The notes under the pieces were generated by a model, which saw only the letters and a program-made list of their open reading frames with translations, made no database searches and was not told the DNA's origin. Both the position numbers and the translations under genes were made by a program. 64,000 nt of DNA from Patescibacteria group bacterium (GTDB lineage: Bacteria; Patescibacteriota; Patescibacteriia; SG8-24; DYFX01), in contig CP129476.1 in assembly GCA_030583805.1 (NCBI GenBank), positions 245,453-309,452 on the forward strand, in the 5' to 3' direction. This document shows, in pieces, positions 1-18,839 of the stretch. Each line of letters begins with the position of its first letter. Positions within the stretch are counted from its first letter, which is position 1.

Positions 1-58
1 TTATGGCTGGCATGTTATCCAATCACTCACGTAATGAAAATCGCACAGGGTCATATGC

Positions 59-838
59 TTATGTTTTTAAAAGGTGATCGTGTAACGCATCGCCGAGAAT
101 AAATTTCATGTGCTTGTCTGACGCTTTGCCGTCCAGATGGATAACCCGCATTTTCCCGTCCTCACTCACGGCGAGTTGGTTGATAAAATCAGGTACGCCA
201 GTCGGTGAAACAAAGTACCTAAAAACCATCCTGCCAATCGGAAACAGGTATCCGATACAGTTCTCAGTTCTAAACTTCGTAGGTGTTGGAATTAACTCCC
301 TGCTAATGTCCTTGTTTTCGCCAGTAACGATATTAACGAGACACGGAAATTTCATTTGAGTCCCAGGATCCCCCAAAAGGAGCATTTGCCGAACTTCCTC
401 CTCGTACTTCCCAAGGTTCACGTGTTGAAAAAACGGCCTGGTGGATATGCTGGCGCGCCACAGCAGAGAAAGCAGGAACAGTTTCAACGCCGCATAGTCG
501 ATATTCACGATATGGGTAGACTTAAGTTCTCCGTCGGGGTGGACTTGGTTTTCTGCCCTTACGTTCGGCAAAACATTATTTGCTTGCGTACCGAAAATAA
601 AAGCCGCTCCGTACTTTTCGTACCCTCCCAGAATCCGGTTATCGCAGTCCTGGCACAAAATACCACCCTCAAACTCCCCTGTTTGCACTTTCTTAGCAGT
701 ACCCAGTGAGCTCAGAGGGATGACGTAGGCTTCGTGATCTTCGCCATAGATATCACGATAGAAAAAATCAGAAAGAATGTGTGATCTGTTAATCAACTCT
801 TTCTCCTGTAGGCAGAGGCGGCATTTACCAATTTGCAT
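59..838 (-). CDS. hypothetical protein with N-terminal CxxC...CxDC zinc-ribbon/HNH-like motif
   Basis: 259-aa ORF in a very AT-rich stretch. It has CRLC...SHIL...CQDCDN cysteine pairs reminiscent of zinc-ribbon/HNH nucleases. It is the last gene of a 3-gene minus-strand operon. Confidence 0.45.
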   Translation of the reverse strand: MQIGKCRLCLQEKELINRSHILSDFFYRDIYGEDHEAYVIPLSSLGTAKKVQTGEFEGGILCQDCDNRILGGYEKYGAAFIFGTQANNVLPNVRAENQVHPDGELKSTHIVNIDYAALKLFLLSLLWRASISTRPFFQHVNLGKYEEEVRQMLLLGDPGTQMKFPCLVNIVTGENKDISRELIPTPTKFRTENCIGYLFPIGRMVFRYFVSPTGVPDFINQLAVSEDGKMRVIHLDGKASDKHMKFILGDALHDHLLKT

Positions 839-860
839 AGTGATTCCCTGTCCTTGCTAA

Positions 861-1310
861 TTACTTTCCCTTATCACCATGTTCCTGAACTACTCTCCAT
901 GTATATGGATAGTTATGGATCTTATGTTTTTGAATCGTGGACCAAGAAGTAAATCGAAAAGTAAGCCATTTAGCAAAAAGATCGATAAACATGTCAGTAG
1001 GAACCTGGTTTTTTACAACCATATAGCAAAGGAACTCGAATTCTCGGTCCGTCCTGAGAGTAATTTCCCTCGACGCTGCTCTATGTTTTTCCGCTTCATA
1101 AGAGTGCGGGTTATCTTCGAAATGCTCCTGCATTTCATCTGGTGTAAGTGCCTCAGCCGATTCTTGAATACTAAACAGCCTTTGACGGCTCTCAAGGAGA
1201 CGGTCAATTTTTTTATTTTGGCGATCCTTACTTATTGCGTAAATCGATAGACCTAATGAGACGATGGCAATAAATACTCCCGCATCTTGGGCAGCCACAG
1301 TTAAGTTCAT
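861..1310 (-). CDS. hypothetical membrane-anchored protein
   Basis: 149-aa ORF with one N-terminal hydrophobic helix (VFIAIVSLGLSIYAI). It overlaps the upstream gene by 4 bp (ATGA coupling). AT-rich. Confidence 0.45.
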   Translation of the reverse strand: MNLTVAAQDAGVFIAIVSLGLSIYAISKDRQNKKIDRLLESRQRLFSIQESAEALTPDEMQEHFEDNPHSYEAEKHRAASREITLRTDREFEFLCYMVVKNQVPTDMFIDLFAKWLTFRFTSWSTIQKHKIHNYPYTWRVVQEHGDKGK

Positions 1311-1888
1311 ATGTTGAAGTCTTTCGCGAATTCGGCAGCTTTATTTTTCAGCATCTGAGATCTCATCTCGTCCAGCAATTCCTGAGTAATACGATACTTT
1401 TGCAATAACGGTGCTATGAAACTCTCGAGCTGTCTGTCAGTGGCTCTTATTGTTTCCGCTGAAGAAAGCAGTTCTACTAGCATCTTTTTGCGCCCTTCAG
1501 GAAACATGAAATCTTCGGCTCTTTCCCTAAAGTAGCGATGAGACAACCAGTTTCGAATTTCAAGCGCATTCGTTAAACCAGCTATGAGGTCAGCCGGCAT
1601 CTCGACATATTGTCGGAAAGCTGAGACCATTTGTCCAAGCGTTTTCCGAAATTCGTTGTCATAAAAAGCATCCACCTCCTTTTCCCATTCAGATACCGTG
1701 CTTACTTTCGAACGTCGTTCTGGAATCAGACGCAAGCACACCATTGCGTTTACTAAACCGTGCTCGAGACACTGAGCCGCATAAACAGCGAGGCCGAAGT
1801 AAGCGTAGACCTCTTTCACTTCTTCAGTTTCATCGCACACCGGCTCAGGGTGGGAACCGATCCCCTTGCTTTTCTCTTCCTGAGTCAT
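1307..1888 (-). CDS. hypothetical protein (alpha-helical, no recognisable motif)
   Basis: 193-aa ORF, first gene of the AT-rich operon. A promoter-like AT-rich region lies upstream (1890-1975). Confidence 0.45.
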   Translation of the reverse strand: MTQEEKSKGIGSHPEPVCDETEEVKEVYAYFGLAVYAAQCLEHGLVNAMVCLRLIPERRSKVSTVSEWEKEVDAFYDNEFRKTLGQMVSAFRQYVEMPADLIAGLTNALEIRNWLSHRYFRERAEDFMFPEGRKKMLVELLSSAETIRATDRQLESFIAPLLQKYRITQELLDEMRSQMLKNKAAEFAKDFNI

Positions 1889-1977
1889 AGCATGTGTGTT
1901 ATTTCATGATTTTGCAGAGCATAAATAGTACACGATTATTGGCTTCCTTGCACCAATAAAAAGTATATACTTCCACT

Positions 1978-2955
1978 ATGTCTTTGATTTTAGGTGTCCA
2001 TCTACCGAATCGGCTTTTCTTGGCGGCTGATACTCGGCTGACCGTCATTAAGGACGGCGAGAAGACGTACCGCGACAACTTCTGGAAGGTGGCGGACTTT
2101 GGTCCTCAGATCACTTGCGTCGTTGCCGGCGACGCCTACCTTGCGGGCTTCATTCTCCGTAAGATAGCGGGTTCCGGTATTAAGCACGATAATATCAACC
2201 AATTCCGCCCATGGTTGGAGGCGAACCTGCCTACCTTCATCGATGCCTACCTCGGCGAAGGTGGCACGTACAAGAAAGTCGCCATGATTTTCGGCGGATA
2301 TGACCGCACGGCGAAGAAGAAGTTGAACTCAAGCGCCCTCGGTGACGCCATGAGCAAGCCGTTCGTAGGCAAAGAAGGCGTCGTGATGGATGTTGCGACG
2401 AACCGAATGGTAATCGATGGGTTGATGCGCGAATTTGCCCGCAGGGGCATGGAGCAAATTCCGAAAGACGCTGAATTCGAGATTGATTATCCCGACTCCT
2501 CGGTCTTTGCTGTGGAGATCGAACTGCCAAACGCCCCCGCGTTCCGTACCATTCCCTGTTATGGAGTGGTCCTGTATGCCCAGAAAAATCTGCGTGAGGA
2601 GCACGCGACGATGGACATGGTCCAGAAGCTCGAGACTCAAACCGACACGCGCCAGAAGGGCGAAGACGCAGTGGTCATGTGGTCATTGAATCTCGTCGCC
2701 ATGATAGACGAGATGATTTCCAAATACAGCCTAGATGGCGTGGGCGGCCACAAGTTGACGGTCTTGCTCACTCCAGAGGGGAACGTCATTCCGATGACAA
2801 CTGTCAAAAAAATGAACAAGGAGACAGGAAAAATCGCTACGGTCTCTGATATCTGCGTGCAGGACGACGCGTTCTGCGTTCGTGACGATAATGGCACCGT
2901 TTCACCTTTCGAGCAGGTCATGAACTACGGGCTGCAGGCTGATGCTGAAATTTGA
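1978..2955 (+). CDS. proteasome/HslV-like Ntn-hydrolase family protein (Ser1 variant) with ~120-aa C-terminal extension
   Basis: The N-terminus MSLILGV...LFLAADTRLT...WKVADF...VVAGDAYLAG...MIFGGYD aligns with the proteasome beta/HslV signature (T1TIVG...AADTRAT...K33...GSAAD...AGYD). Ser replaces the Thr1 nucleophile. Asp17 and a Lys at about position 36 are conserved. Confidence 0.5.
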   Translation: MSLILGVHLPNRLFLAADTRLTVIKDGEKTYRDNFWKVADFGPQITCVVAGDAYLAGFILRKIAGSGIKHDNINQFRPWLEANLPTFIDAYLGEGGTYKKVAMIFGGYDRTAKKKLNSSALGDAMSKPFVGKEGVVMDVATNRMVIDGLMREFARRGMEQIPKDAEFEIDYPDSSVFAVEIELPNAPAFRTIPCYGVVLYAQKNLREEHATMDMVQKLETQTDTRQKGEDAVVMWSLNLVAMIDEMISKYSLDGVGGHKLTVLLTPEGNVIPMTTVKKMNKETGKIATVSDICVQDDAFCVRDDNGTVSPFEQVMNYGLQADAEI

Positions 2956-3624
2956 ATGGACCCAATGGAACGGACAACGAGTCGAGAAACCATCATCGAG
3001 TATCTGCCCATCATCAAAAAGATTCAGGCGTCTCTTGAGATTCGTCTATTGAAACACCCGAGCCTTGAAGGATCCGATAAATTGCCGTTCTACGGCCTGT
3101 GGGGCGGACACGATCCCGTACCGGTTATTGAAGCTTGGCAAATTATCGGTGGCTGGGTCGGTGAAAAGGGCGTACGGGTTGAGAACACTTGGCCGTCATT
3201 CCACTTGGTGAAGACCGACAGCGCGACGGATTGGTGGGAGGTGCACAAGCTCATCGCTAAACACATTCGTAAGCAAGATCCAGTCGAAGCCGGTCGGGAA
3301 AAGGCGATACGTCGCGACTCCCCAATCGAAATCGCCCTTACGCTCGAAGGCGATCTTTTCCGTGGAAAGCATAAATACTCACTGAGAGAACCGCGACGCG
3401 TTTCTCTCATTAGGCTGCTCAGTGGGGCTGGCGGCAGCTTCGTTAAAACGAACGAGTTGCAGTTGCTGGTCGGCAACGCGAGTGCAGATGCGCTCCGGGG
3501 GATGATCCACGCTATAAATAGGGGTGCCAGAATCCATCTTGTGATCAAGTACAACGTCATCGAAGGCCGTTCCCGAAGCGGCTACCGAATCAATCCGAAG
3601 TATAAGCTTGGCCGCAAAAAATAG
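2956..3624 (+). CDS. hypothetical protein, translationally coupled to the Ntn-hydrolase-like gene
   Basis: Its start codon directly abuts the upstream stop (TGA-ATG). 222 aa with a basic C-terminus. No recognisable motif. Confidence 0.5.
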   Translation: MDPMERTTSRETIIEYLPIIKKIQASLEIRLLKHPSLEGSDKLPFYGLWGGHDPVPVIEAWQIIGGWVGEKGVRVENTWPSFHLVKTDSATDWWEVHKLIAKHIRKQDPVEAGREKAIRRDSPIEIALTLEGDLFRGKHKYSLREPRRVSLIRLLSGAGGSFVKTNELQLLVGNASADALRGMIHAINRGARIHLVIKYNVIEGRSRSGYRINPKYKLGRKK

Positions 3625-3797
3625 CGCGCACCCTAACGTCACTCACGTGGAGTGAATAACTCCAGAGAAACGGCCTGAATATGGCCGTTTTTCTGTTGTG
3701 CCTCTCCACGTGTGTGGGATGTGAGTGACATTCCGAACGGGGTGGAATGTACGTAGGTCGAGCCGGTACCAGTCCTAATAACCATACCCAAGACCCT

Positions 3798-5075
3798 ATG
3801 CCAGACACCCTCAACTTGCAGGTCGAGTACGTACCCATCGATTCGCTCAAGCCCTGTCCTTGGAACCCACGCAAGTGGGACGAGGCCGCCAAGAGTCAGC
3901 TCCGAGAAAGCCTCGTCCGCTTCGGATTGGTAGACCCGCTCATCGTGAACCAGCATCCCAATCGGTTGAACTTCATCGTCGGCGGCCATTTTAGGCACGC
4001 CATGGCAAAAGAGATCGGAATCGAGAAGGTCCCGGTCGTGTATGTCTCGCTTCCCGAAGACAAGGAGAAAGAGCTTTCGCTCCGTCTCAATAGGAACATC
4101 GGCGGCTGGGACTATGACCTTCTTAAAGAGTTCGACACTTCCCTGCTCCTCGACGTCGGGTTCGATAACCGTGATCTCAGCGCTATTTGGGATGCAGCTC
4201 TCGAAACGTCGGATGACGGATTCGACGTCGAAAAAGAAGCCGCCAAGATCACTGCGCCCAAAACCAAGTTGGGTGACATGTACGCGCTCGGCAAGCATGT
4301 CCTGATCTGCGGCGACTCGAGGGATGAGACCACGATCAAGAAGCTCGTCGGAAGCCAAACGATCGACATGGTCTATTCGGATCCCCCCTTCAACATCGGT
4401 CTGTCATACAACAAAGGCATTTCGACCTCTGGCAAGTACGGAGGCCTCAAGACGGACGACAAGCTCTCGGACAGTGCCTATCGAGAATTCCTCACCAAGA
4501 CCATCAGGAACGCCCTTACGGTCTCAAAACCTGATGCCCATGTCTTCTCCTGGTGCGACGAGAACAGCGTCGGGCTCCTGCAAGACCTCTTTACCGAACT
4601 CGGTCTCCAAAATCGACGGACGTGCCTGTGGATCAAGAACAATTTCAACATGACGCCTGGTGTCGCCTTCAACAAAGCCTATGAGCCCTGCGTCTACGCC
4701 ACGCGCGGAAAGCCGTACCTCGCCCCCGACGTGAAGAATCTGAACGAGGTCATGAACAAGGAAATCGGCGTCGGGAACCGTACGATCGACGATATCTTGG
4801 ATCTCTTCAACATCTGGCTGGCTAAGAGGCTGCCCGGCCGGGACTACGAGCACCCTACGGAAAAACCCCCGACACTCCACGAGAAGGCACTGAGGCGCTG
4901 TACAAAGGTTGGAGACGCGGTTCTCGATCTCTTCTGCGGTTCGGGGTCGACCCTCATGGCCTGCGAGATGATGAAACGCCGATGCTTCACATGCGAGATC
5001 GAGCCCGTATTTTGCGATGTAACGATAAAAAGATATGAACTCCTCACCGGAGACAAGGCCAAGCTTCTCAATTAG
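3798..5075 (+). CDS. ParB-like nuclease domain fused to beta-class N6-adenine/N4-cytosine DNA methyltransferase
   Basis: The N-terminus has the ParB/Srx motif (YVPIDSLKPCPWNPRKWD...IVGGHFRH). This is followed by DPPFN (motif IV) and a C-terminal FCGSGST (motif I), i.e. a permuted beta-class MTase. An alternative upstream ATG exists at 3747. Confidence 0.8.
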   Translation: MPDTLNLQVEYVPIDSLKPCPWNPRKWDEAAKSQLRESLVRFGLVDPLIVNQHPNRLNFIVGGHFRHAMAKEIGIEKVPVVYVSLPEDKEKELSLRLNRNIGGWDYDLLKEFDTSLLLDVGFDNRDLSAIWDAALETSDDGFDVEKEAAKITAPKTKLGDMYALGKHVLICGDSRDETTIKKLVGSQTIDMVYSDPPFNIGLSYNKGISTSGKYGGLKTDDKLSDSAYREFLTKTIRNALTVSKPDAHVFSWCDENSVGLLQDLFTELGLQNRRTCLWIKNNFNMTPGVAFNKAYEPCVYATRGKPYLAPDVKNLNEVMNKEIGVGNRTIDDILDLFNIWLAKRLPGRDYEHPTEKPPTLHEKALRRCTKVGDAVLDLFCGSGSTLMACEMMKRRCFTCEIEPVFCDVTIKRYELLTGDKAKLLN

Positions 5076-5811
5076 TCCCGGCGACATCTATGCACTCGGG
5101 AACCATCGGCTGGCCTGCGGCAGCACGAGCGACCACGACCTGCTCCGTCGGCTTTTCGATAACGACAAGATTGACCTCGTCCTCACGGATCCGCCGTATG
5201 GCGTCGCCTACGTCAGCTCGAAGATCGGCGTAACGGAAGGGATCTCGAAACCGAAGGAAATCATCGGCGACCACGAGCAGAGCGACGCGGAGTACCGTGC
5301 CTTTACGAAGGACTGGCTTCTGTCCGCACGCCCATATCTCGCCAAAAAGAATGCGACCTATATCTTCAACTCCGACAAGATGATCTTTGCCCTTCGCGAA
5401 GGCATGCTTGAGGCCGGATTCAAATTCGCCCAACTGCTCATTTGGGTGAAAGACCATGCTGTGCTCGGACGGATGGACTACCTGCCCCAGCACGAACTCA
5501 TCGCCTACGGCTGGTTCGGAACGCATGCGTTCCGGCGTTCGAAGGCTAAGAGCATTCTCGCTTTTCCGAAGCCGGGAAAAAGCCCGCACCACCCCACCCA
5601 GAAGCCAATAGGCTTGCTTCGCGAACTCATCTTGAACAGTTCGAAGCCGAACGACGTGGTCTTCGACGGATTCATGGGCGGCGGCTCGACGCTGCTCGCG
5701 TGCGAGCAGACGAAGCGTCGATGCTTCGGCGTCGAGATCGACGCGGAGCACTGTCTCACGGTTATCCGCAGATGGGAGGCGCTGACCGGACAGAAGGCCG
5801 TGAAGACGTGA
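5035..5811 (+). CDS. beta-class DNA methyltransferase (N4-C/N6-A)
   Basis: DPPYG motif IV, HPTQKP and C-terminal FDGFMGGGST motif I. It overlaps the upstream MTase by 41 bp. Confidence 0.8.
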   Translation: MNSSPETRPSFSISPGDIYALGNHRLACGSTSDHDLLRRLFDNDKIDLVLTDPPYGVAYVSSKIGVTEGISKPKEIIGDHEQSDAEYRAFTKDWLLSARPYLAKKNATYIFNSDKMIFALREGMLEAGFKFAQLLIWVKDHAVLGRMDYLPQHELIAYGWFGTHAFRRSKAKSILAFPKPGKSPHHPTQKPIGLLRELILNSSKPNDVVFDGFMGGGSTLLACEQTKRRCFGVEIDAEHCLTVIRRWEALTGQKAVKT

Positions 5812-5812
5812 T

Positions 5813-6364
5813 ATGAAATCAGGCGCCACAGCATCACCAGCACGGGCGACTCCGGCCGAAAGGCCGGAGCGTCTTAAGGCTCGGCATGCGAAGAAGCTCA
5901 TGCTGGAGATGCTGCGGAAGTACCCGATCATCGAGGCAGCCTGCTCGAAAGCCGGCATTTCCCGTTCGACGCATTATGAGTGGATGAAGAAGGATGCGCG
6001 GTACTCGGCCGATGTCGAACAAGCCACGAGAGCGAGCATCGACACCGTGACCGACATTGCGGAGAGCAATATCATCGAGGGTATCAAGAAGGGAGATTAT
6101 AAATGCTCGGCATTCTGGCTCATCCATCGCCATATGGCCTACAAGAAAAGGAACGATTTGGAAGACACCAAGACAGAGAAACTCCTGATCAAGCCGCCGC
6201 CGAGCGAACGGTTTATCGCTGCGGTCAGAAAATACGATCCTGATTACAATCCTCCCAAAGGGGTGCAATACATCACGCGGGAGGAATGGGAACGCGAACG
6301 ACGGAACGCTGAAGTTTTTTCACGTTTATACGAAGAAAGGCTTCGTCTTGAATCGAGCAAGTAG
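5813..6364 (+). CDS. HTH-domain protein, phage terminase small-subunit-like
   Basis: Has the AACSKAGISRSTHYEWMKKDARYSADVEQA helix-turn-helix typical of phage TerS/homeodomain-like proteins. It starts 2 nt after the MTase stop. Confidence 0.4.
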   Translation: MKSGATASPARATPAERPERLKARHAKKLMLEMLRKYPIIEAACSKAGISRSTHYEWMKKDARYSADVEQATRASIDTVTDIAESNIIEGIKKGDYKCSAFWLIHRHMAYKKRNDLEDTKTEKLLIKPPPSERFIAAVRKYDPDYNPPKGVQYITREEWERERRNAEVFSRLYEERLRLESSK

Positions 6365-6415: not shown

Positions 6416-7450
6416 TCAGTGCCGGATGCCTCCTCCGTCTCGCCAGCAGTCGCCGACCACGTTCCAGTTGTTCAGGTTGAACCAACTGGTCTGGCCCGAC
6501 GACGACCCGTAGAGGAAGAAGTTCATGTTCTGTACCGAGTTGCTCAGGATGAGGCTGTAGCTCGTGACCGAACTCGACCACGTTGCCTTGGGCTTGCCTG
6601 AAGTGTAGGCGCCCCATCCGTCGGTATCCGATCCGTATTCGAGATAGACCGGACTGCCGCTCGGTACGGAGCCGAAGATGCCGTACGGGATGTTGCCCGT
6701 GATCGTCACCGTCATGTCCGGGCCGTTCTCGACGCAGTTGATGGTACCGTTCGGAGGTGCAGCATGCGTGATGACGCCGCCGTTCTTCCAGCAGGCTCCG
6801 CCGACCGTCCAGGCATCGCCGTCGTAGTCGGCGTCCGTCAGGTCGAACCACTTGCCCGTGCTTCCGTCCGTCAGGTACAGGTTGAAGTTGTAGACGTTCG
6901 GAGGGAGAAAGAGCGTGTGGTTGTTCGTGCCGTTCCAGTTCGTGAAGGCCTTGCCCGAGCTGTAGGGAACGCTCCACCCATCCGTGTCCGATCCGTAGAG
7001 GATCTTGGTCGGATTCGTGACGGAGCCGTTCACGAGCATGCTCTGGATCGGCCCGTTCACGTAGACGGAGAGGCCGTTCGAATCGAGCGTACAGCTGATG
7101 TCGCCGGTCGACGGCGGCGGTACGAGGTGGCGAATGCCGCCTCCGTCGCGCCAGCAGTCGCCGGTCACCGTCCAGTCGTTGAGGTCGAACCATCCCTGTT
7201 GCCCGCTCGTCGGGTTGTACAGGAAGAAGTTCATGTTCTGGACGGACGGGTTGAGTGCGAGGGTGTAGACCCTCGGAATCCCTGTCGAAACCCAGTCGCC
7301 GACCCACTCCGCCTTGGGCTTGCCTGAGGTGTAGGCGCCCCATCCGTCGGTATCCGATCCGTATTCCAACAAGGTGCCGGATGCGGTGACCTGGGTGAAG
7401 ACGCCTTCCTGCACGGGACCGGTGATGGACACGTCCAGCGCGGCACCGCT
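6416..7450. repeat. intragenic tandem repeats (~330 bp units, outer copies near-identical)
   Basis: DNA segments around 6596-6650 and 7324-7380 are almost identical (ggcgccccatccgtcggtatccgatccgtattc). They match the protein repeats in the M23 peptidase C-terminus. Confidence 0.6.
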
Positions 7451-8917
7451 CACGCGGCAGTCGATCGTCATGGAAGTGACGCCGCCGCCTTGTCCGCCTG
7501 GATGGCACTCGTTGGACTTGGCGTAGTTGAACGGAACGCTGTTGTTGAGCGGCGCGCCCGACAAGGCCGCGACGGTGCCGTCGGGGATCTGGATGACGTT
7601 CCTGTAGCCTCGGTACGTCCCGTAGACGAGCTGGACGTACTTTCCGAACCCGGCGACCCACTCTTCACGGTTGAGCCGCTGGTAGCGGGTGACCGGCGTC
7701 GATGTCGCGTCGTTGCCAGTGATCGTATCCGCGGTCACGAGCCAGAAGTCGTTGTCACTGGCTTCCTCCACGACCGTACCCACGCGCAGTCCCAGGTTCG
7801 GGCCGGAAGGCATCGTGTTGCATTCCTCGGCCGTGCCCACCTGCAATTCATTGGACTTGAAGCCCCATGACTTGATCAGCGGCTGGTACCGCGCATCCGC
7901 TTGGGTGAAGGGAATCCTGCGCCTGAGAGAAGATGTACCGCTCTTGAACGTGACATAGAACTCAACGGTGACACCTGGGTTGCAAACGACGAGTCTTGTT
8001 GTTTGCTGAGAGGAGATGTCCGGCCCTTGCGCGTAGCAACCGAGCACGTCCGAAGGCACCTCGACGACTTGCGCCGTGGGACTCGACGAATCCTGCCAGA
8101 GCCTGCGCCCGACGAACGCGTTCCAGTCGGTGATGTGACACACCGTGGACTCGCTACAGACGAGGTAGATCTCCGGATGGCCGATCTGCTTGACGAGCGT
8201 GCCGACCGGGAAATGCGTCGCGCCGTTCCCGCCGATCGTCACCCAATGCGACGACTGCGAGAGCGGCATGTCGATATCCAAGAAATGGGTGTAACCGCCC
8301 ATCGGTTCGGGTTTGACGGGCTCGAAGACGTTCGGATCGGATACGGTCGGGCAGTGGAGGGCGAAGTGGATGTGCGGGCCGGTGACATTGCCCGTCGATC
8401 CTTCGTATCCCAGCAGCTGGCCCTTCTGGACGACCTGTCCGTGAACAACCGAGCGGCTGTTCAGGTGGCCGTAGTGCGAGAGACACCCGTTGGAGTGTCT
8501 CACATGCACGTGTCTGCCCCAGCCCGAGTTCCAGTCGTCGCCGCCGCTCCAGGCACGGATCTCGACCGTGCCGGCCGCGACGGCCAAGACGCGCGTGTTG
8601 TTGCCCGAGACGCCGATGCCCGCGAAGTCGATCGCGTACTGGTCATCGCCCAGGCCGCTCCACGAGCTGCCGTGATCGGAGTGGCTGAAGCACTGTGCGC
8701 CCTGCGGCGTGAGGTTGTTCGGGCAGTACGTCTGAGCCACGACGTGCGGCTGGGTCAGATCGAAGGGCAAGCCCAGATCCAATCCGACGTCCGCAGCCGT
8801 GCGCGGTGGGCCCACGATGGGCAGCTCCACGGCACCGGTGTCTTCCGGATCCTCCGCGTAGCAACCGACCAAGATCAACAGCAGGAACTGCACGCACAAT
8901 AGGAGCCTCGTTCGCAT
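6416..8917 (-). CDS. secreted M23-family metallopeptidase lipoprotein with three C-terminal ~100-aa repeats
   Basis: Signal peptide plus lipobox (LILVGCYAE). M23 motifs (HxxxD-like HSDHGSSW, GSTGNVTGPHIHFALH). Three repeats of YGSDTDGWGAYTSGKPKA...NMNFFLY...WFDLNDW...GDCWRDGGGIRH. Confidence 0.85.
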   Translation of the reverse strand: MRTRLLLCVQFLLLILVGCYAEDPEDTGAVELPIVGPPRTAADVGLDLGLPFDLTQPHVVAQTYCPNNLTPQGAQCFSHSDHGSSWSGLGDDQYAIDFAGIGVSGNNTRVLAVAAGTVEIRAWSGGDDWNSGWGRHVHVRHSNGCLSHYGHLNSRSVVHGQVVQKGQLLGYEGSTGNVTGPHIHFALHCPTVSDPNVFEPVKPEPMGGYTHFLDIDMPLSQSSHWVTIGGNGATHFPVGTLVKQIGHPEIYLVCSESTVCHITDWNAFVGRRLWQDSSSPTAQVVEVPSDVLGCYAQGPDISSQQTTRLVVCNPGVTVEFYVTFKSGTSSLRRRIPFTQADARYQPLIKSWGFKSNELQVGTAEECNTMPSGPNLGLRVGTVVEEASDNDFWLVTADTITGNDATSTPVTRYQRLNREEWVAGFGKYVQLVYGTYRGYRNVIQIPDGTVAALSGAPLNNSVPFNYAKSNECHPGGQGGGVTSMTIDCRVSGAALDVSITGPVQEGVFTQVTASGTLLEYGSDTDGWGAYTSGKPKAEWVGDWVSTGIPRVYTLALNPSVQNMNFFLYNPTSGQQGWFDLNDWTVTGDCWRDGGGIRHLVPPPSTGDISCTLDSNGLSVYVNGPIQSMLVNGSVTNPTKILYGSDTDGWSVPYSSGKAFTNWNGTNNHTLFLPPNVYNFNLYLTDGSTGKWFDLTDADYDGDAWTVGGACWKNGGVITHAAPPNGTINCVENGPDMTVTITGNIPYGIFGSVPSGSPVYLEYGSDTDGWGAYTSGKPKATWSSSVTSYSLILSNSVQNMNFFLYGSSSGQTSWFNLNNWNVVGDCWRDGGGIRH

Positions 8918-9768: not shown

Positions 9769-10578
9769 TCACTTATTTCCGTAGTTGTTAATCGCATGGG
9801 AGAGCACGGCCCCAATAATATCCCGGTTTCCAGGGACTTTAAATTTTAGGAGGCGTGGTCTCGACTTATTGTTCTCAGAAAAGCGAATGCCGTCTGAATA
9901 AAAGTTCAAGTCCAGTATATTTTCAAGCTTGGAGGCAAAAGATTTCTTTTCCCCTCTGAAGATAGCGCGCCTGCTTGTCAGGATCAGCTCACCCTCACAG
10001 ACATCGACCAATCCGGTTTCGCTTTCGATATGGCCTCGATGTCCGCCGATTCGGAAACTCACTCCCTTCATAACTCTTAGGCTTATACCTTGAGATCCGC
10101 CTTGGTATCTCCTGCGGATCACCTTTTCCTCAACCAGAATGACTGGCTCAGCCCAATAGACTTTTTCGCTCTTAAGCGTAATGAGGTTCATAACCGGGCG
10201 AATCACCGGCATATTCCCCTGCCTGATCTCGTTCAAAAGACGAAGTCGCGCGAGCTCTTTCTTATCGTTATGGATTTCACCGTCACTCAAGCCAAGAAGC
10301 TTCTGAATGGCGTGCAACTCGCTCTCTTCCTCTTTAGTCACCTCATTATCTGATTTTGCAGCTGCAAACGCAGTTGTATAAGCCTCAGCTTTCAAACCTC
10401 TGAAGTCTCCGTCTGTGAGTCCAAACTCGGCTTTCAACTTGTCGAGTTCGGACATTTCTTCGAGAGAAATACTTCCATCAGCCGCCGCTTTTAGAAAAGC
10501 TTTTCTAAAAAACTGTTTATTCAGGCTTTTCTGCTTAGCAGCTTTGTACTTATCTACGAGCGTTTGAAATATACCCAT
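9769..10578 (-). CDS. hypothetical protein (TerB-like acidic repeat N-terminus, bacterial PH-like C-terminus)
   Basis: 269-aa ORF that is clearly more AT-rich than its neighbours. It has repeated SxEExxEL...GLxDG motifs, then a beta-rich C-terminal region. Confidence 0.45.
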   Translation of the reverse strand: MGIFQTLVDKYKAAKQKSLNKQFFRKAFLKAAADGSISLEEMSELDKLKAEFGLTDGDFRGLKAEAYTTAFAAAKSDNEVTKEEESELHAIQKLLGLSDGEIHNDKKELARLRLLNEIRQGNMPVIRPVMNLITLKSEKVYWAEPVILVEEKVIRRRYQGGSQGISLRVMKGVSFRIGGHRGHIESETGLVDVCEGELILTSRRAIFRGEKKSFASKLENILDLNFYSDGIRFSENNKSRPRLLKFKVPGNRDIIGAVLSHAINNYGNK

Positions 10579-10944: not shown

Positions 10945-11535
10945 TCACTGACACGTCGTGGTCGGCCAGCCGTTGTTCTGGTTCACCCAGTAGCTGGAGC
11001 CGCCGCAGGCGCCGCCATAGAAGTCGATGCGACTCCCGATGTTGACGTTCTGCCAGAGCTCGAAATGCATGTGCGGACCGGTCGAGTAACCGGAGTTACC
11101 CGACTGGCCGACAGAACCGCCGCACAAGATGCTCTGCGGCCAGACGACCGTCCCGTTCTTCAAGTGCGCGTAGATGCTCACCTTGCCGTCAGACGGATGA
11201 GAGATCCGGACGTGGTTGCCGTAACTGCCGCCGCAGGTCTGGTCAGCGCCGCTGTCAGAGCATCCATCGAGCCTGTAGTACAGGGAACCGGAAGCTCCTG
11301 CGAGCACCGTTGTGCCCATGCTGGATGCGAAGTCCGTACCGTTGTGTCCATCGTAGTAGTAGCCCGTCCCGCAATCGTACCGAGTCATTGCTCCGCTGGC
11401 CGAGTTGTGGTCGTACCAGGAGATGTAGCCCGGATTCGAGCTGAACGGGAGGCGGAACAGCGTTCCGGCGTGAGCTGCGTGAGCCACGAACAGAACCGTG
11501 ATGCAGAGGATCGAAAGGGTGAGATACTTTTTCAT
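10945..11535 (-). CDS. secreted M23-family peptidase
   Basis: Signal peptide (LSILCITVLFVAHAAHA). YDGHNGTD (HxxxD) and GPHMHFELW (HxH) zinc-binding motifs. Confidence 0.8.
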   Translation of the reverse strand: MKKYLTLSILCITVLFVAHAAHAGTLFRLPFSSNPGYISWYDHNSASGAMTRYDCGTGYYYDGHNGTDFASSMGTTVLAGASGSLYYRLDGCSDSGADQTCGGSYGNHVRISHPSDGKVSIYAHLKNGTVVWPQSILCGGSVGQSGNSGYSTGPHMHFELWQNVNIGSRIDFYGGACGGSSYWVNQNNGWPTTTCQ

Positions 11536-14590: not shown

Positions 14591-16528
14591 CTAAGACAAA
14601 GCGACGACGTTTTCGGCTCCAAACCATTCCTTTGCCTTCGCAATTACTCCAACTGACGGAGCGTGGAAAAAGACCGCGAGTTGCTCCTTTGAGCGCGTAC
14701 AGCACACATAGAATATTTTCCGTGTTCGCTCTAAGACGCTCGGAGTTCCAGATTCCAGAAAAAGGTTCTCGAAATTATATTCGTTCCATTTCCCGTTGTC
14801 TAAAATGGTGAATACATAATCGAACTCGGCACCCTTGATCTTGTGTTGTGTGGAGAACGGCGTTTTCCCCTCCAAATAATCGTATAATTTTTGAAATTCG
14901 CTGAACCTAACCGCCTTCACTCGATCATACAAGTACTCGTTTTCAATCTTGAAACGAGTAATACTATCGTCGAGCAGGCAGACGCCCTTTTCGTCAGCCA
15001 GACGGACGATCTCTTCGACGGTCTTCTCGCCGACGCTCGTTAGTTCGGTAATGCTGCCTTGTAAATTTAACTTATCTTCAACACTAGAAATACGGAAGTC
15101 AGTAACTCTGAGAAACTCATTGTATTGCTTGTTCTGATAGAGTGAAATATTGTTTTGGATTTTGAAGAGGTGCCTTATCAGGTTGTCCCTTTTTGAACTC
15201 TTTTTATTCTCGTCGCCCTCATCCTGTTTCTTGTCATCTAACAGCTGATCCTTATCGACATAGACTTTTCTAAAATCGGAAAAAAGATATCTGCGAGCTT
15301 TCTCATACAGTTCGGGGTTTGCAGCAAGGAATTTCCCAATCACGGTAGTCGGTTTAATCTGCAGATTCACTAGGTCGACTACCTCGCCAAAAGTCAGGGT
15401 TTCCGCAACCGCGATATTTTTCTCCTTTATTTCCTTCACTATCTTGCCCTTCAATTCTAAAATTCTTTCTTTATCGTATATATCCATCAGAGTCCTAAAT
15501 CCCGCCTTGTCCGCTATCAAGTTGTGCGTTAAATTCAACTCTTTAGTCTCCTTGGAATCAGAAAAATCCCAGGCGAAGTTGGTTGAAAGATAATCCCGCA
15601 CTCGATTTAGGTCTGGGTCGTCCGAGTAGATAAATTTCACTACGCCCACTTTTACATTTCCGCCAGTCAACATGTTCGGTGCGGTGACGTCCGCCGATGG
15701 CGTTTGCACCAAGCCGTCGGTTCGTAGTCTGTTGGCTAGATCGATTATTGTCTTCGGGTTCCTTCTGTTCTGCTCTTTCTTGATCTCCTTAACCTTATCG
15801 GCGGCGTCACCTTTGTATGCGTCCAAATTTCCGATACCCCCGTCATAGATCGATTGCATCGCGTCTCCAAAAAAGCCGATAACATTTTTCTTGGCACTTT
15901 TCTTGAAATGATCGAGAAAGATACCGATCACGGCCTTGTCAGTGTCCTGATACTCATCGATGAAGATGAATTTGAACTTGTCTTTTACTATGTCACAAAG
16001 CTTAGGATATTTTTCAAACAAGTAATTTGCCACGATGAGCAATTCATCGTGTGAAATAATGCCCTTGCTCAGTTTCAGGTACTCCTTGTACTGAATTCCT
16101 TCTTCACAACTATCAAAAAATCCTTCCGGGACGGGATTGGGCTCATCGACCCGTATTTTTTCCACCAGGTCATCATTGGCCAGAGCAATCAAGGCCAATT
16201 TCAGTTCCTTCTGAAAATGCTTAATGTTATCCCATAAGAAATCGTGGATCGTGGACACGCTGAGATTCTTATGCCCAACTCGGTCGCTGATTTCTTTGAC
16301 CGCAGCATTGGTGAAGGTCATGCATGCAATTTTGGCTGTCGGGTTTTCCGCGATGGACTGCCTGATAGTTTGCACCAAAGAATACGTTTTACCGCTTCCT
16401 GCTCCACCACTGAGAAGGAAATTGCGCCCGGAGTCTATGCACCGGAAGATCTCCTGCACTTCAGGCTCCAGCGTCAATCTTGCTTCAGCCATAGCAGCCC
16501 TTCTTTTATGTATGACGGTATTTGCCAA
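14591..16528 (-). CDS. gajB: UvrD/PcrA-like SF1 helicase (GajB-like)
   Basis: Walker A GGAGSGKTY, motif II FIDEYQDTD, Q-motif and C-terminal helicase motifs. AT-rich. It overlaps the upstream OLD gene. Confidence 0.75.
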   Translation of the reverse strand: MANTVIHKRRAAMAEARLTLEPEVQEIFRCIDSGRNFLLSGGAGSGKTYSLVQTIRQSIAENPTAKIACMTFTNAAVKEISDRVGHKNLSVSTIHDFLWDNIKHFQKELKLALIALANDDLVEKIRVDEPNPVPEGFFDSCEEGIQYKEYLKLSKGIISHDELLIVANYLFEKYPKLCDIVKDKFKFIFIDEYQDTDKAVIGIFLDHFKKSAKKNVIGFFGDAMQSIYDGGIGNLDAYKGDAADKVKEIKKEQNRRNPKTIIDLANRLRTDGLVQTPSADVTAPNMLTGGNVKVGVVKFIYSDDPDLNRVRDYLSTNFAWDFSDSKETKELNLTHNLIADKAGFRTLMDIYDKERILELKGKIVKEIKEKNIAVAETLTFGEVVDLVNLQIKPTTVIGKFLAANPELYEKARRYLFSDFRKVYVDKDQLLDDKKQDEGDENKKSSKRDNLIRHLFKIQNNISLYQNKQYNEFLRVTDFRISSVEDKLNLQGSITELTSVGEKTVEEIVRLADEKGVCLLDDSITRFKIENEYLYDRVKAVRFSEFQKLYDYLEGKTPFSTQHKIKGAEFDYVFTILDNGKWNEYNFENLFLESGTPSVLERTRKIFYVCCTRSKEQLAVFFHAPSVGVIAKAKEWFGAENVVALS

Positions 16529-18576
16529 TTATCGAGTTTCTCGCTGCTGTGAAACAGGATGTCTAATGCAAAGTGCGTCTTTTTCTTTATGCAGTTATCG
16601 GCGAGCGCGTACGCATCTTTGGTAGCATCGTCGAAGTCCTTCTTGTTTTGGAGTCCCTTAAAACTCGCTTTATTGGTCGACACGAAAGCACGATTCAGGT
16701 GGATGAAACTGTCTTCGAAACTCCGGGCGTTGTACCCATTTTCCTCAATTTGGTAAACGACACAGATGTCGCCATTGGGATCCTGAGTCCACGTGTTTGA
16801 TGCCTTTTTAAATTTCTTGCCTGATATCGTAAGGCTCTTCAAAGTTCCCAACGTGGCCGTGCCAAAGAAAAACCTGAGGGCGTCGTTTGAGTAATCGGTA
16901 CCGGCGGCGACCCTGCAAGCCCTGCCGTCCGCACCGATGGAGTCCAAGTCCGTGACGATCAGCGACTTGATTCCAAGGAAATCAATAAATTTCTCGAAAA
17001 TTTGTGAGTACGCGCCGACTTCTATTACGGAGATGTTCTGTGACAACAGAGGGGGGTGAGGGTCTACAGTCTTGGCTGCCATATGTTTTTCAGACTCCTC
17101 GATGTCAACTTTCTTCATGATCGTCGGTACCAAAATCCGCTCGGTGTCGCCCTCGATCAAAACTGCCTTCTCTGCAAAAAACACCTCGGCCCTGCTGATC
17201 GTGAGATACTGTTTCAAAAATTGGTACTGGACCGCTTCGGACGCATATTCTTCTTGCAGATCCTTAAGATTTTTTGCGGCGACGCCATTGGCACCATCTT
17301 TTTTGAGGTATTTGATGTCGTCAAAATCACTATCCGCGACGATGTGCGAGGAGTGTGTGCTGATGATGTATTGCAATTTTCGATCCTCCCCATCCTTTCT
17401 CTTGATACCTTCCTTGAGTAGATCCTTGATGTTCTTGATGAACACGTACTGCATTTGGGGGTGCGTGTGTGCCTCCGGTTCCTCGATAAAAAGCAGGTTG
17501 ATGTCTGCGGGCCTCGACTCCCTTTCTTTCTTGAACTCCTGCAAAAGGATCTCAATCTCAAAGATCATGCTGATCAGGTTCATATAGCCCAGACCGTTGT
17601 AGTGCTCAGGGAGCAGATTGTCCGTGTCATGCCTGTATACGACGGTGGTATTACCTTCAAGCAATCTCTGGTGCTGTAACGTAGAGATAATCTCAATCTC
17701 TGATTCGGAAATTTTGATTCCTCCGAATTTTTTTACTTTCTCTATCGCGCCGCCGAACAGGGTTTTATACACCTCGCTCAAGCTTACATCGGCCTCGCTT
17801 AATTTGCCCTTGAAAACCTCGATGACCTCGTTCTGATCGTCGCTTATCTCTGTCCTGTCGTAAATCTTGGAGGTTTGGGCAGACAGTGTTTTATCTGAGT
17901 CGCTATTAGTGACCTCCCTTTTGGCACTAACGTATTTAAAATTGATTATGTCCTTGATGTTTATTTTTTCCTTGATGAGGTCAATGAAATTTGCCTCGTT
18001 CTCCAGTTTGGTAGTCTTATCAAACCCTATGGTCTTTTTGTTGATTTTAAAATAAATGTGATGGTTTAATTTTAGGAAATCGTATACACGCTTCGGCTGA
18101 TATTTCGCGTCTTTAGCCTTCTTTGCCTCCTCATCCTTTTTAAACACCGCATACTCTCCTTTGACCTTAGTGTAGTCACCAAAGTTTAAGGTGTAATCAA
18201 AGCCGAGGACCACCACATTATTCGCGGGATCCAGATCCATCATCACCCGTTCGACGTTGGACAAATTATCGCCAGCTCCGTACTCGATGAAAATTTTTAG
18301 TTTTATACCCAAGCCGTGGAATTTACTGAAATCGTCTTCCGATAGGTCGTTCGCATCCTCAATCAGAGTCTTTAGTTCCTTTTTGAAGTCGGTATTGAAA
18401 TCGTCAAAAGAAAACCTATGCTTCTCGGACTGGTTGAGGAACTTATCGAGAATGGTCAGTATCGATGTCTTTCCGGTGTTATTCTTTCCGATCACCAGCG
18501 AAAGCTCATCCTCCAGGTCTATGGAGATTTTTTTAAGAAGCCGATAGTTTTCGATCTGTATTTTGAATATTTTCAT
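16474..18576 (-). CDS. gajA: OLD-family ATPase/Toprim endonuclease (class 2 OLD, GajA-like)
   Basis: N-terminal ABC-type ATPase (GKNNTGKTS Walker A; LLFIEEPEAHTHPQMQ Walker B/H-loop). C-terminal Toprim (VLIEGDTERIL, IVTDLDS). Located immediately upstream of a UvrD-like helicase. Confidence 0.8.
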   Translation of the reverse strand: MKIFKIQIENYRLLKKISIDLEDELSLVIGKNNTGKTSILTILDKFLNQSEKHRFSFDDFNTDFKKELKTLIEDANDLSEDDFSKFHGLGIKLKIFIEYGAGDNLSNVERVMMDLDPANNVVVLGFDYTLNFGDYTKVKGEYAVFKKDEEAKKAKDAKYQPKRVYDFLKLNHHIYFKINKKTIGFDKTTKLENEANFIDLIKEKINIKDIINFKYVSAKREVTNSDSDKTLSAQTSKIYDRTEISDDQNEVIEVFKGKLSEADVSLSEVYKTLFGGAIEKVKKFGGIKISESEIEIISTLQHQRLLEGNTTVVYRHDTDNLLPEHYNGLGYMNLISMIFEIEILLQEFKKERESRPADINLLFIEEPEAHTHPQMQYVFIKNIKDLLKEGIKRKDGEDRKLQYIISTHSSHIVADSDFDDIKYLKKDGANGVAAKNLKDLQEEYASEAVQYQFLKQYLTISRAEVFFAEKAVLIEGDTERILVPTIMKKVDIEESEKHMAAKTVDPHPPLLSQNISVIEVGAYSQIFEKFIDFLGIKSLIVTDLDSIGADGRACRVAAGTDYSNDALRFFFGTATLGTLKSLTISGKKFKKASNTWTQDPNGDICVVYQIEENGYNARSFEDSFIHLNRAFVSTNKASFKGLQNKKDFDDATKDAYALADNCIKKKTHFALDILFHSSEKLDNWQIPSYIKEGLLWLKQD

Positions 18577-18764: not shown

Positions 18765-18839
18765 TGGCTCCGAGGCTGGGATTCGAACCCAGGACCAATG
18801 GATTAACAGTCCACTGCTCTACCGCTGAGCTACCTCGGA
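18765..18839 (-). tRNA. tRNA-Asn (anticodon GTT)
   Basis: The reverse complement folds as a cloverleaf. Acceptor stem TCCGAGG/CCTCGGA, anticodon loop CTGTTAA, T-loop GGTTCGAATCC, encoded CCA. Confidence 0.85.

Follow-up and report, generated by a model that had tools for sequence, protein, structure and literature searches.

MNT antitoxins are the classical partners of HEPN toxins. The defining motif of HEPN proteins is Rx4-6H, in which the Arg is directly followed by a polar residue (N, D or H; PMC3710099). Members of the DUF4145-like branch of the superfamily, e.g., RAZR/PD-T7-4, are encoded by solo genes of defense islands and of the P2 defense hotspot, the region between gpA and gpQ that has been linked to defense experimentally (PMC9122126). 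DUF4238 (PF14022), a single-protein defense against T7, was likewise found in the P2 hotspot (Rousset et al. 2022). DUF4760 (PF15956), the proteins of which have an N-terminal transmembrane (TM) helix, is mentioned in one paper, only as an item of a genomic island. Three adjacent genes of a Patescibacteria group bacterium, here designated A, B and C, show likenesses to these families. The locus is probably best understood as a lineage-specific juxtaposition, within an acquired, defense-rich island, of three independently mobile genes that encode a HEPN-like protein (A), a membrane-anchored protein (B) and a protein with a zinc module (C).

The three genes are located at the left end of the window, which is the entire 64,000-nucleotide stretch of DNA that was analyzed (assembly GCA_030583805.1, contig CP129476.1, positions 245,453 to 309,452), and are all encoded on the minus strand. 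According to the ORF calls, gene A extends over 1307..1888 (193 aa; NCBI tag QY323_01370), gene B over 861..1310 (149 aa; QY323_01365) and gene C over 59..838 (259 aa; QY323_01360). They are real genes because all three have database relatives. Their tight coupling, noted in the initial annotation, was borne out by the ORFs: direct reading of the sequence revealed that the gene A stop overlaps the gene B start in ATGA, and 22 nt lie between genes B and C. Judged by spacing only, A, B and C are probably co-transcribed, and the ATGA overlap together with the 22 nt between B and C is also what a functional operon would show. The presumed promoter region of A-B-C is the divergent 89-bp intergenic segment at 1889..1977, between gene A and a plus-strand gene encoding 325 aa. 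A 7-bp inverted repeat without mismatches, TTATTGG-N10-CCAATAA, lies within it at ~1936-1959. Scans for sigma-70-type promoters and for terminators yielded nothing above chance; promoters of Patescibacteria may differ from the sigma-70 type. None of the three proteins has a match above threshold in Pfam or NCBIfam, or any match in PADLOC-DB v2 at E <= 1, in agreement with the initial annotation, which had assigned them to no recognizable family.

The first 2 kb of the window have a GC content of 0.44-0.45 vs. ~0.60 across most of the window. The GC3 values of A (0.48), B (0.37) and C (0.53) are the lowest of the region, compared with 0.59-0.67 in the adjacent island genes and 0.7-0.83 in core genes. 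The foreign base composition claimed for the three genes is thus confirmed, but it is not unique in the window, since a second low-GC patch, at 14.6-18.6 kb, contains a Gabija system located 13 kb from the trio. The trio was acquired horizontally, as follows from the difference between its GC3 (0.37-0.53) and that of the core genes and from the identity of the other low-GC patch as Gabija.

Together with its surroundings the trio forms an accessory island of intermediate GC, identified by GC3, Pfam and PADLOC, that occupies 1..6364 and runs ~3.5 kb further to the left of the window. The methyltransferase (MTase) genes reported nearby are indeed present, at 3747-5811, with two genes without assigned function (1978-3624) intervening between them and the trio. 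Pfam matches identify the first as a ParB-MTase (3747-5075) and the second as an MTase (5035-5811); a gene for an HTH protein follows at 5813-6364. The sequence to the left, inspection of which had been recommended, was obtained from a contig of the same organism (L001), which agrees fully with the window for 6632 bp and continues beyond its left edge. It encodes an HTH_17 (mad1-like) protein, a 234-aa TM protein, HEPN_AbiU2 and a 268-aa protein. The foreign composition and the richness of the island in defense genes (MTases, AbiU2, Gabija) uphold the view that the setting is a horizontally acquired, defense-like one.

In the initial annotation gene A was described as encoding a plain soluble protein, and its canonical HEPN motif, RNxxxH, was overlooked. 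A database search retrieved 63 relatives of A, and members of the family occur at at least 249 metagenomic loci. The family includes phrog_12893, a PHROG of unknown function that matches A at E 5.5e-11, and gp38 of phage PSP3, which matches the A-family HMM at E 3e-18. In an alignment of 29 sequences E42, H43, R112 and H117 are invariant. In 102 sequences the conservation of E42, R112 and N113 amounts to 99% and that of H117 to 100%, the last three residues belonging to the motif R112-N113-W-L-S-H117. The motif agrees with the Rx4-6H definition, including the polar residue after Arg (PMC3710099), and the AF2 model of A (pLDDT 90.8) consists of helices only (20-61, 65-80, 84-92, 99-117, 130-164 and 169-190), which corresponds to the all-alpha fold of HEPN proteins. 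Two matches below threshold cover the motif region, DUF4145 (E 0.012, 16.1 bits, cut-off 23.1) and HepT-like, the latter in 2 of 29 family members (E 0.027). Because RNxxxH and E42 are conserved, the model is all-helical, the DUF4145 and HepT-like matches lie over the motif and the motif conforms to the published definition, A is considered a new HEPN-like family without prior annotation.

The closest described counterparts of A are the DUF4145-like branch and AbiU2, with which it shares the small size, the all-helical structure, R-N-x3-H and the invariant upstream Glu. Like the DUF4145-like proteins, which provide its best Pfam lead, A is a solo gene of defense islands and the P2 hotspot. The AbiU2 gene located 2 kb away encodes a similar motif, RDKWLAHDD, vs. 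RNWLSHRYF in A. There are also differences. The N-terminal zinc finger of RAZR is absent from A; E42, although 99% conserved, is found in the context LEHGLVNA rather than the typical HEPN Ex3[KR]; and the helix with this family-specific sequence and a C-terminal helical extension of ~60 residues set A apart from HEPN families. A search with the consensus sequence of the family against curated families gave leads below threshold only. Comparison of the family with PDB sequence profiles revealed nothing relevant and no HEPN, and Foldseek found neither a significant match of the model in the PDB nor a HEPN structure. The family was not significantly related by hhalign to the neighboring AbiU2 or to an RNxxxH (HEPN-like) protein adjoining an A relative. 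The RNase activity of A is putative.

The genomic settings of the relatives point in the direction of defense. PSP3 gp38 and its homologs in 31 E. coli prophages are encoded between gpA and the portal gene gpQ of P2-like phages. Another A relative is located directly behind qatABCD on a Vibrio plasmid, and raw tallies of further neighbors include XhoI, Eco57I, C5-MTase, AbiJ, AAA_15/21 and HNH. The closest relatives of A have a UvrD-like helicase as neighbor. A recurrent pair of A with DUF2971 was considered and rejected, as it is confined to E. coli prophages and one further locus (L006) and the two DUF2971-like proteins are dissimilar. The genes downstream of A relatives at L006 (213 aa and 244 aa) and L010 (129 aa and TIR) were excluded as homologs of B or C by BLAST and HMM searches.

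The membrane anchor attributed to the middle gene is present: B contains a single N-terminal hydrophobic segment, residues 5-23 (KD19 = 1.81). Behind it come the basic sequence KDRQNKK and then a cytoplasmic domain made of helices. The family is rare. Exhaustive phmmer searches yielded 19 relatives, and a word-index search retrieved only B itself. DUF4760 matches B with E 0.005-0.006 and 17.1-17.5 bits, below the Pfam cut-off of 25, and matches 4 of 14 family members at E <= 0.1. Positions 4-112 of the 141 positions of the profile align with B, and the two share the N-terminal TM helix and a 150-190-aa helical cytoplasmic domain. B resembles DUF4760 and is an inner-membrane protein with its anchor at the N-terminus. 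Within the B family, one member matches SLATT_5/6 and another Hol_Tox, which recalls SLATT-type membrane effectors; SLATT proteins, however, have two TM helices, B only one. A B relative is found close to Abi_C and HicA; the closest relatives lie in the dnaA/dnaN region.

The overlap of the A stop with the B start raises the question of whether translation couples A and B as a pair, in which a HEPN toxin would have a membrane protein as its partner or immunity factor, with C as an unrelated neighbor. B, which lies between the other two genes, has the most deviant GC3 of the trio, and genes for TM proteins are slightly more common downstream of A relatives (18/75 vs. ~13-15% at other positions, by crude ORF calls). 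This excess does not go beyond the proportion of membrane proteins that is usual in genomes and is not a convincing enrichment, so that an analogous, non-homologous TM partner behind A was dismissed as well. A B-family gene was found beside none of the 86 A-family loci, no HEPN-like neighbor was seen at the B relatives, and no MNT antitoxin is encoded here. Such a pair is hence unlikely.

C has 67 relatives in a database search (E values down to 1e-119) and 169 family members in GTDB species genomes that span Bacteroidota, Patescibacteria, Ignavibacteriota and Proteobacteria (at least 169 species). It belongs to phrog_19960/7075, of unknown function. Conserved are C6xxC9, S-H20-I-x-P, C62xxC65-[DE]66, E74, LLW127-R128-A-S130, E146, R150 and P186. 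The CxxC...H...CxDC arrangement pointed out in the initial annotation is thus real, and in 128 members its residues, i.e., the four Cys, H20 and D/E66, are 95-100% conserved along with E/D74 and W-R-x-S. In the AF2 model (pLDDT 92.2, pTM 0.91) H20 (96% conserved) is part of the strand 19-22 and D/E66 (100%) is situated at the start of the helix 63-82. The 95-100% conservation of these residues, in conjunction with the confident model, suggests that C is a Zn-binding, enzyme-like protein. Neither its sequence family nor its model resembles a protein in the PDB: comparison with PDB sequence profiles gave nothing relevant, and the best Foldseek hits, to unrelated folds, had an insignificant E of 0.05. 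A library of viral structures contained one uncharacterized phage protein similar to the model (TM 0.69).

The proposed similarity to HNH nucleases fared less well than the motif itself. In arrangement C resembles Cys4 HNH (ββα-Me) nucleases of the HNH_5 type, having CxxC, followed by [S/A]-H on a predicted β-strand and by CxxC-[D/E] where a helix begins. In these enzymes, as in T4 endonuclease VII, the corresponding succession consists of zinc ligands, the catalytic His and a metal ligand borne by the helix. HNH_5 matches C below threshold and over positions 1-22 of 56 only (E 0.015-0.21), i.e., over its first half, and 7 of 44 C-family members at E <= 0.1; Foldseek retrieved no ββα-Me structure. 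C departs from HNH in a three-strand insert of ~40 residues between His20 and the second CxxC, in the residue preceding His, which is S/A and not D/E/H, and in a large, conserved C-terminal domain with the WRxS helix that lacks an HNH counterpart.

A second comparison leads to DUF4238. Alignment of the two profiles by hhalign covered 206 collinear columns with a score of 29.1 and a P of 0.0036, at a probability of only 9%. Unrelated profile pairs score 9-16, block shuffling of the C-DUF4238 pair gave 20.1 +/- 2.3, and 1 of 120 shuffles reached at least the observed score. Searches of HMM against sequence produced no match in either direction. Both families behave as solo genes and have the motif H-[IYF]-[IV]-P-x-F/Y in the N-terminal part, and their proteins are similar in size (259 aa for C, ~305 aa for DUF4238). 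DUF4238 differs in lacking the two CxxC pairs of C, and its invariant R107 is two residues out of register with the invariant R128 of C. On the basis of these sequence comparisons C may be a remote, zinc-ribbon-decorated relative of DUF4238. In two unrelated genomes DUF4238 genes are located <=1 kb from C relatives. Another C relative follows a restriction endonuclease gene on a plasmid, and raw tallies of C neighbors list Mrr_cat three times, Fic twice, DUF4238 twice and Lit peptidase U49. Many housekeeping genes also occur in C neighborhoods; the closest relatives have tRNA-modification genes, an integrase or a GIY-YIG-like gene as neighbors.

Their distribution could mean that the genes have no role in defense. 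They would then be selfish or maintenance cargo of a mobile element, in which C might be an HNH endonuclease of the homing type and A a toxin for addiction, or else regulators unrelated to phages. It is patchy, in variable contexts beside integrases and transposases; C has the weak resemblance to HNH_5; and there are the PHROG matches and the one structural match to a phage protein. C is nevertheless nearly absent from phages (no tblastn match in 50,697 phage genomes and four relatives in IMG/VR), its relatives are single chromosomal copies that are not inserted into conserved genes, and genes of the A family reside in a hotspot experimentally linked to defense. Non-defense cargo is therefore quite unlikely. 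We infer an anti-phage role of the genes from the defense and mobile contexts of their relatives. The defense setting of the trio is indeed repeated among the relatives of A and C, which are accompanied by RM, Abi, Qat, Fic, DUF4238, integrase and transposase genes or occupy the P2 hotspot.

The initial annotation viewed the three genes as one defense or abortive-infection module. A lineage-specific three-component system of this kind, e.g., a HEPN RNase and a zinc nuclease controlled by, or signaling to, a membrane protein, would account for the tight, co-oriented packing with the ATGA overlap and the 22-nt gap, for the deviant composition common to all three genes and for their place in a defense-rich island. 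Co-occurrence was determined by searching every ORF of 173 related loci with one HMM per family; 85 C-family loci, 86 A-family loci and the B-family contigs were covered. A, B and C were found together only on L001, which is from the source organism. No neighbor of A or C is conserved, as no neighbor family was present in more than 3-4 of ~85 loci. The trio is also absent from the closest relatives (52-65% identity), in which the genes have other neighbors, so that the comparison of gene neighborhoods proposed in the initial annotation speaks against a module. A young, lineage-specific origin would be compatible with the missing co-occurrence elsewhere. Against a three-component system stand the failure of the families to meet outside the source organism in any of the 173 loci, the closest relatives included, and the occurrence of each family alone in many differing contexts, with the B-family members standing alone. 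A three-component system is thus decidedly unlikely, and a new CPR-specific three-part abortive system is the less likely interpretation. Because co-occurrence is restricted to the source organism, no neighbor is conserved and the closest relatives have other neighbors, the trio is a singular combination of three genes that are each mobile on their own and not a conserved three-part system.

Within the juxtaposition of independent genes favored here, A would most likely cleave RNA without metal, at a composite R-N-x3-H site formed upon dimerization or oligomerization, and RNA cleavage would stop translation during infection in the manner of abortive infection. B may be a membrane effector or an exclusion protein. 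C, with its predicted Cys4 zinc module and its invariant constellation of His, acidic residue and Trp-Arg-x-Ser, is probably an enzyme directed at nucleic acid, presumably a nuclease, that acts alone. We tentatively consider, as a possibility somewhat short of an even chance, that two anti-phage families, each consisting of a single gene, have so far escaped description: that of A, with minimal HEPN-like RNases that stand alone and include gp38 of the P2 hotspot, and that of C, with a zinc-dependent enzyme the fold of which is absent from the PDB. As it stands, the locus is an ordinary defense-island accretion of uncharacterized solo genes that exhibits no new system architecture.

If A and C were confirmed as solo defense genes, two widespread, unannotated families would be added to the defense catalogs; at present PADLOC and Pfam miss both. 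The reach of A extends to P2-like prophages of E. coli and Salmonella, to plasmids and to the metagenomic loci counted above. A stand-alone A would need to stay inactive, and to be triggered, without a fused sensor or an antitoxin. C, if its relationship holds, would tie DUF4238 defense to a Cys4/His active site and would provide the first mechanistic handle on DUF4238. For the organism itself, an episymbiotic member of the Patescibacteria, the locus means that a genome of ~1.2 Mb carries low-GC, acquired defense cargo consisting of Gabija, AbiU2, MTases and the trio.

The three minus-strand genes at the left edge of the window, A (1307-1888, 193 aa), B (861-1310, 149 aa) and C (59-838, 259 aa), are tightly packed: the start of B overlaps the stop codon of A (ATGA), and B and C are spaced by 22 nt. 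The window derives from a Patescibacteria (CPR) MAG, and the A, B and C proteins are identical to the NCBI entries QY323_01370, QY323_01365 and QY323_01360, respectively, which are borne by a 1.17-Mb contig. The GC content of the first 2 kb is 0.44-0.45 vs ~0.60 across most of the window; the GC3 values of A, B and C are 0.48, 0.37 and 0.53, compared with 0.59-0.67 in the flanking genes of the surrounding accessory island and 0.7-0.83 in core genes. None of the proteins matched Pfam, NCBIfam or PADLOC at the curated threshold, and the PHROG matches (A to phrog_12893, C to phrog_19960 and phrog_7075) are all of unknown function. Relatives of A, B and C exist in public data and they are therefore real genes. 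ORFs, spacing, GC3 and family searches thus confirm the initial annotation in its description of a packed, GC-deviant three-gene arrangement outside the curated families. The divergent 89-bp spacer ahead of A holds a perfect 7-bp inverted repeat (TTATTGG-N10-CCAATAA, ~1936-1959), which may be an operator.

The proposal that the three genes form one module was not borne out. The three family HMMs were used to search every six-frame ORF in 173 loci, comprising 80 A loci from metagenomes (which hold at least 249 A relatives), 80 C loci from GTDB species genomes (at least 169 C relatives) and the contigs of individual A, B and C relatives. The sole locus to contain two or more of the families was L001, a contig of the same organism that is identical to the window across 6.6 kb and extends to the left; elsewhere, neither the trio nor a pair was conserved. 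Clustering of the ±3 neighbours in ~85 loci each for A and C revealed no neighbour family in more than 3-4 loci, and the few that were common to 3-4 loci came from near-duplicate contigs. The closest relatives, checked as the likeliest to have kept a partner, tell the same story. C relatives of 57% and 61% identity adjoin an integrase and follow a GIY-YIG-like gene, respectively, in both cases without the trio; the contig of a third (65%) covers just 162 bp on the upstream side of the gene. A B relative of 50% identity stands alone beside dnaA/dnaN. The closest A relative (52% identity; L204 1-1375, a contig with a GC of 0.28) begins 4 nt after the gene of a UvrD-like helicase with a GajB-like C-terminus, and nothing B-like was found behind it. 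A search behind A relatives for a TM partner that is analogous but not homologous gave no convincing excess. Because the families co-occur only in L001, lack common neighbours and lack the trio in their closest relatives, the trio is a lineage-specific juxtaposition of three unrelated solo genes and not a conserved system.

The genomic surroundings are of the defence type. Directly left of window position 1 (L001 6881-9397) lie four genes of intermediate GC3 (~0.6): an HTH_17 gene (PADLOC mad1, E 3e-9), one encoding a multi-TM protein of 234 aa, HEPN_AbiU2 (229 aa, with the motif RDKWLAH) and an unknown gene of 268 aa; core-like composition returns at L001 ~10300. To the right, two adjacent plus-strand genes of 325 aa and 222 aa (1978-3624), divergent from A and abutting stop to start at 2955/2956, matched neither Pfam nor PADLOC. 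Beyond them lie a ParB-MTase and a second MTase, in agreement with the MTases noted initially near the trio. A second low-GC patch (14591-18576, minus strand, GC 0.43-0.47) consists of a complete Gabija system, with GajA (16474-18576, minus strand, 700 aa, PADLOC E 3e-287) and GajB (14591-16528, minus strand, 645 aa, E 3e-236); it adjoins a tRNA-Asn (18765-18839). That the window's other low-GC patch is Gabija supports the view that such patches in this genome are defence cargo taken up from elsewhere. Just past the island, the minus strand encodes M23 peptidase-domain proteins of 833 aa (6416-8917) and 196 aa (10945-11535), and a TerB-like protein is encoded at 9769-10578.

In the A family alignment, E42-H43 and R112-x4-H117 are invariant; among 102 sequences, E42, R112 and N113 are conserved to 99% and H117 to 100%. 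The R-N-x3-H motif agrees with the HEPN census, which describes an RNase motif of this type with a polar residue after Arg and a conserved acidic residue upstream (PMC3710099); E42 lies in LEHGLVNA and not in the Ex3[KR] setting typical of that acidic residue. The AF2 model (pLDDT 90.8) contains only helices. Sensitive sub-threshold leads, namely the family consensus against DUF4145 over the motif region (E 0.012) and HepT-like matches of two members, suggest the HEPN clan. A similar-looking motif, RDKWLAHDD, is found in the neighbouring AbiU2 HEPN gene beyond the left window edge, although hhalign of the A family with this neighbour was not significant. Foldseek matched the model to no solved HEPN structure, and A is thus called HEPN-like by predicted fold class and motif rather than a HEPN member. 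Among characterised proteins its nearest analogue is RAZR (PD-T7-4), a zinc finger joined to a DUF4145/HEPN RNase and activated by assembly on phage protein rings (PMC13017515); unlike RAZR, A has no zinc finger.

A relatives occur in mobile and defence-type settings. Salmonella phage PSP3 gp38, located after gene A/tumAB at the cos-proximal genome end, is a family member (HMM E 3e-18) with the motif RNYLAH. Of 5426 complete E. coli genomes, 31 carry a homologue, within a P2-like prophage between the replication endonuclease and portal genes; this site is the gpA-gpQ locus, a defence hotspot of such prophages (PMC9122126). Another A relative stands behind qatABCD on a plasmid of Vibrio, and neighbours in metagenomic loci include XhoI, Eco57I, C5-MTase, AbiJ, AAA_15/AAA_21, HNH, UvrD, transposases and integrases. 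The UvrD and AAA_15/AAA_21 neighbours hint that part of the A genes travel behind loci resembling Gabija or OLD. In two loci, L202 2099-5420 (E. coli SaT040 P2-like prophage) and L006 1896-3874, an A-family gene and a DUF2971-like gene stand side by side; BLAST shows no similarity between the two DUF2971-like proteins, and none of the remaining A loci has this pairing. The hotspot table of Rousset et al. lists the arrangement 'DUF2971 + DUF4145', which may be the same pair. L010 (5001-6920) holds a further defence-type cluster, which adjoins a tyrosine integrase: behind an A relative come a 129-aa protein, a TIR_2 protein and, at a greater distance, a truncated RNxxxH (HEPN-like) ORF.

C had been likened to HNH nucleases. 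Among 128 family members, C6, C9, C62 and C65 are conserved to 95-100% and H20 to 96%, positions 66 and 74 are acidic throughout, and W127, R128 and S130 are invariant. The succession of Cys pairs, a strand-borne His and an acidic residue at the N-terminal end of a helix is compatible with HNH; however, HNH_5 was matched only over the first 22 of 56 positions (E 0.015-0.2), and at E <= 0.1 by only 7 of 44 members, so that the partial, sub-threshold match does not establish the assignment. The AF2 model (pLDDT 92.2, pTM 0.91) had no significant neighbour among PDB structures; its sole structural neighbour is an uncharacterised phage protein (TM 0.69). A second candidate is DUF4238, a single-protein anti-T7 defence of the P2 hotspot (Rousset et al. 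2022), which the N-terminal S-H-I-I-P-x-F motif of C brings to mind. Against a profile built from the validated sequence (supplement of the DUF4238 paper) and eight annotated plasmid homologues, hhalign aligned the C family collinearly over 206 columns (score 29.1, P 0.0036, probability 9%). Unrelated profile pairs scored 9-16, the reversed profile 14.6 and block-shuffled profiles 20.1 ± 2.3, the observed score being reached in 1 of 120. HMM-to-sequence searches gave no match in either direction, and the invariant Arg residues lie two positions apart in the alignment. From sequence comparison, C may plausibly be a remote relative of DUF4238.

C relatives are spread over Bacteroidota, Patescibacteria, Ignavibacteriota, Proteobacteria and others (GTDB) and are almost missing from phage genomes. 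Their neighbourhoods are very heterogeneous (131 Pfam families among 150 neighbours) and include Mrr_cat (three times), Fic and DUF4238 (twice each), Lit peptidase U49, integrases and IS200, as well as housekeeping genes; in one case, on a plasmid, a restriction endonuclease precedes the C relative. True DUF4238 genes lie less than 1 kb from C-family genes in L019 3-2179 (Parcubacteria MAG) and L054 6001-7847 (Chitinophagaceae MAG), in the latter convergently.

B belongs to a rare family, with 19 representatives in 1.84 billion. The membrane anchoring ascribed to it agrees with a predicted single N-terminal hydrophobic helix (residues 5-23); as a basic stretch follows this helix, the positive-inside rule predicts a cytoplasmic C-terminal domain. 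DUF4760 was matched below threshold (17 bits vs a cut-off of 25; 4 of 14 members), SLATT_5/6 and Hol_Tox were touched by single members, and genes for Abi_C and HicA occur close to one relative. As a guess, B might be a membrane effector or exclusion protein.

Of the horizontally acquired defence module first envisaged, the acquisition of A, B and C and their defence-type context stand; the module dissolves into three solo genes, and the HNH assignment of C is only partly backed. As the likeliest mechanisms, A would work on its own as a HEPN-like RNase in abortive infection; C would be an enzyme that depends on zinc and is directed at nucleic acids, with a possible kinship to DUF4238; and B would serve as a membrane-anchored accessory protein.
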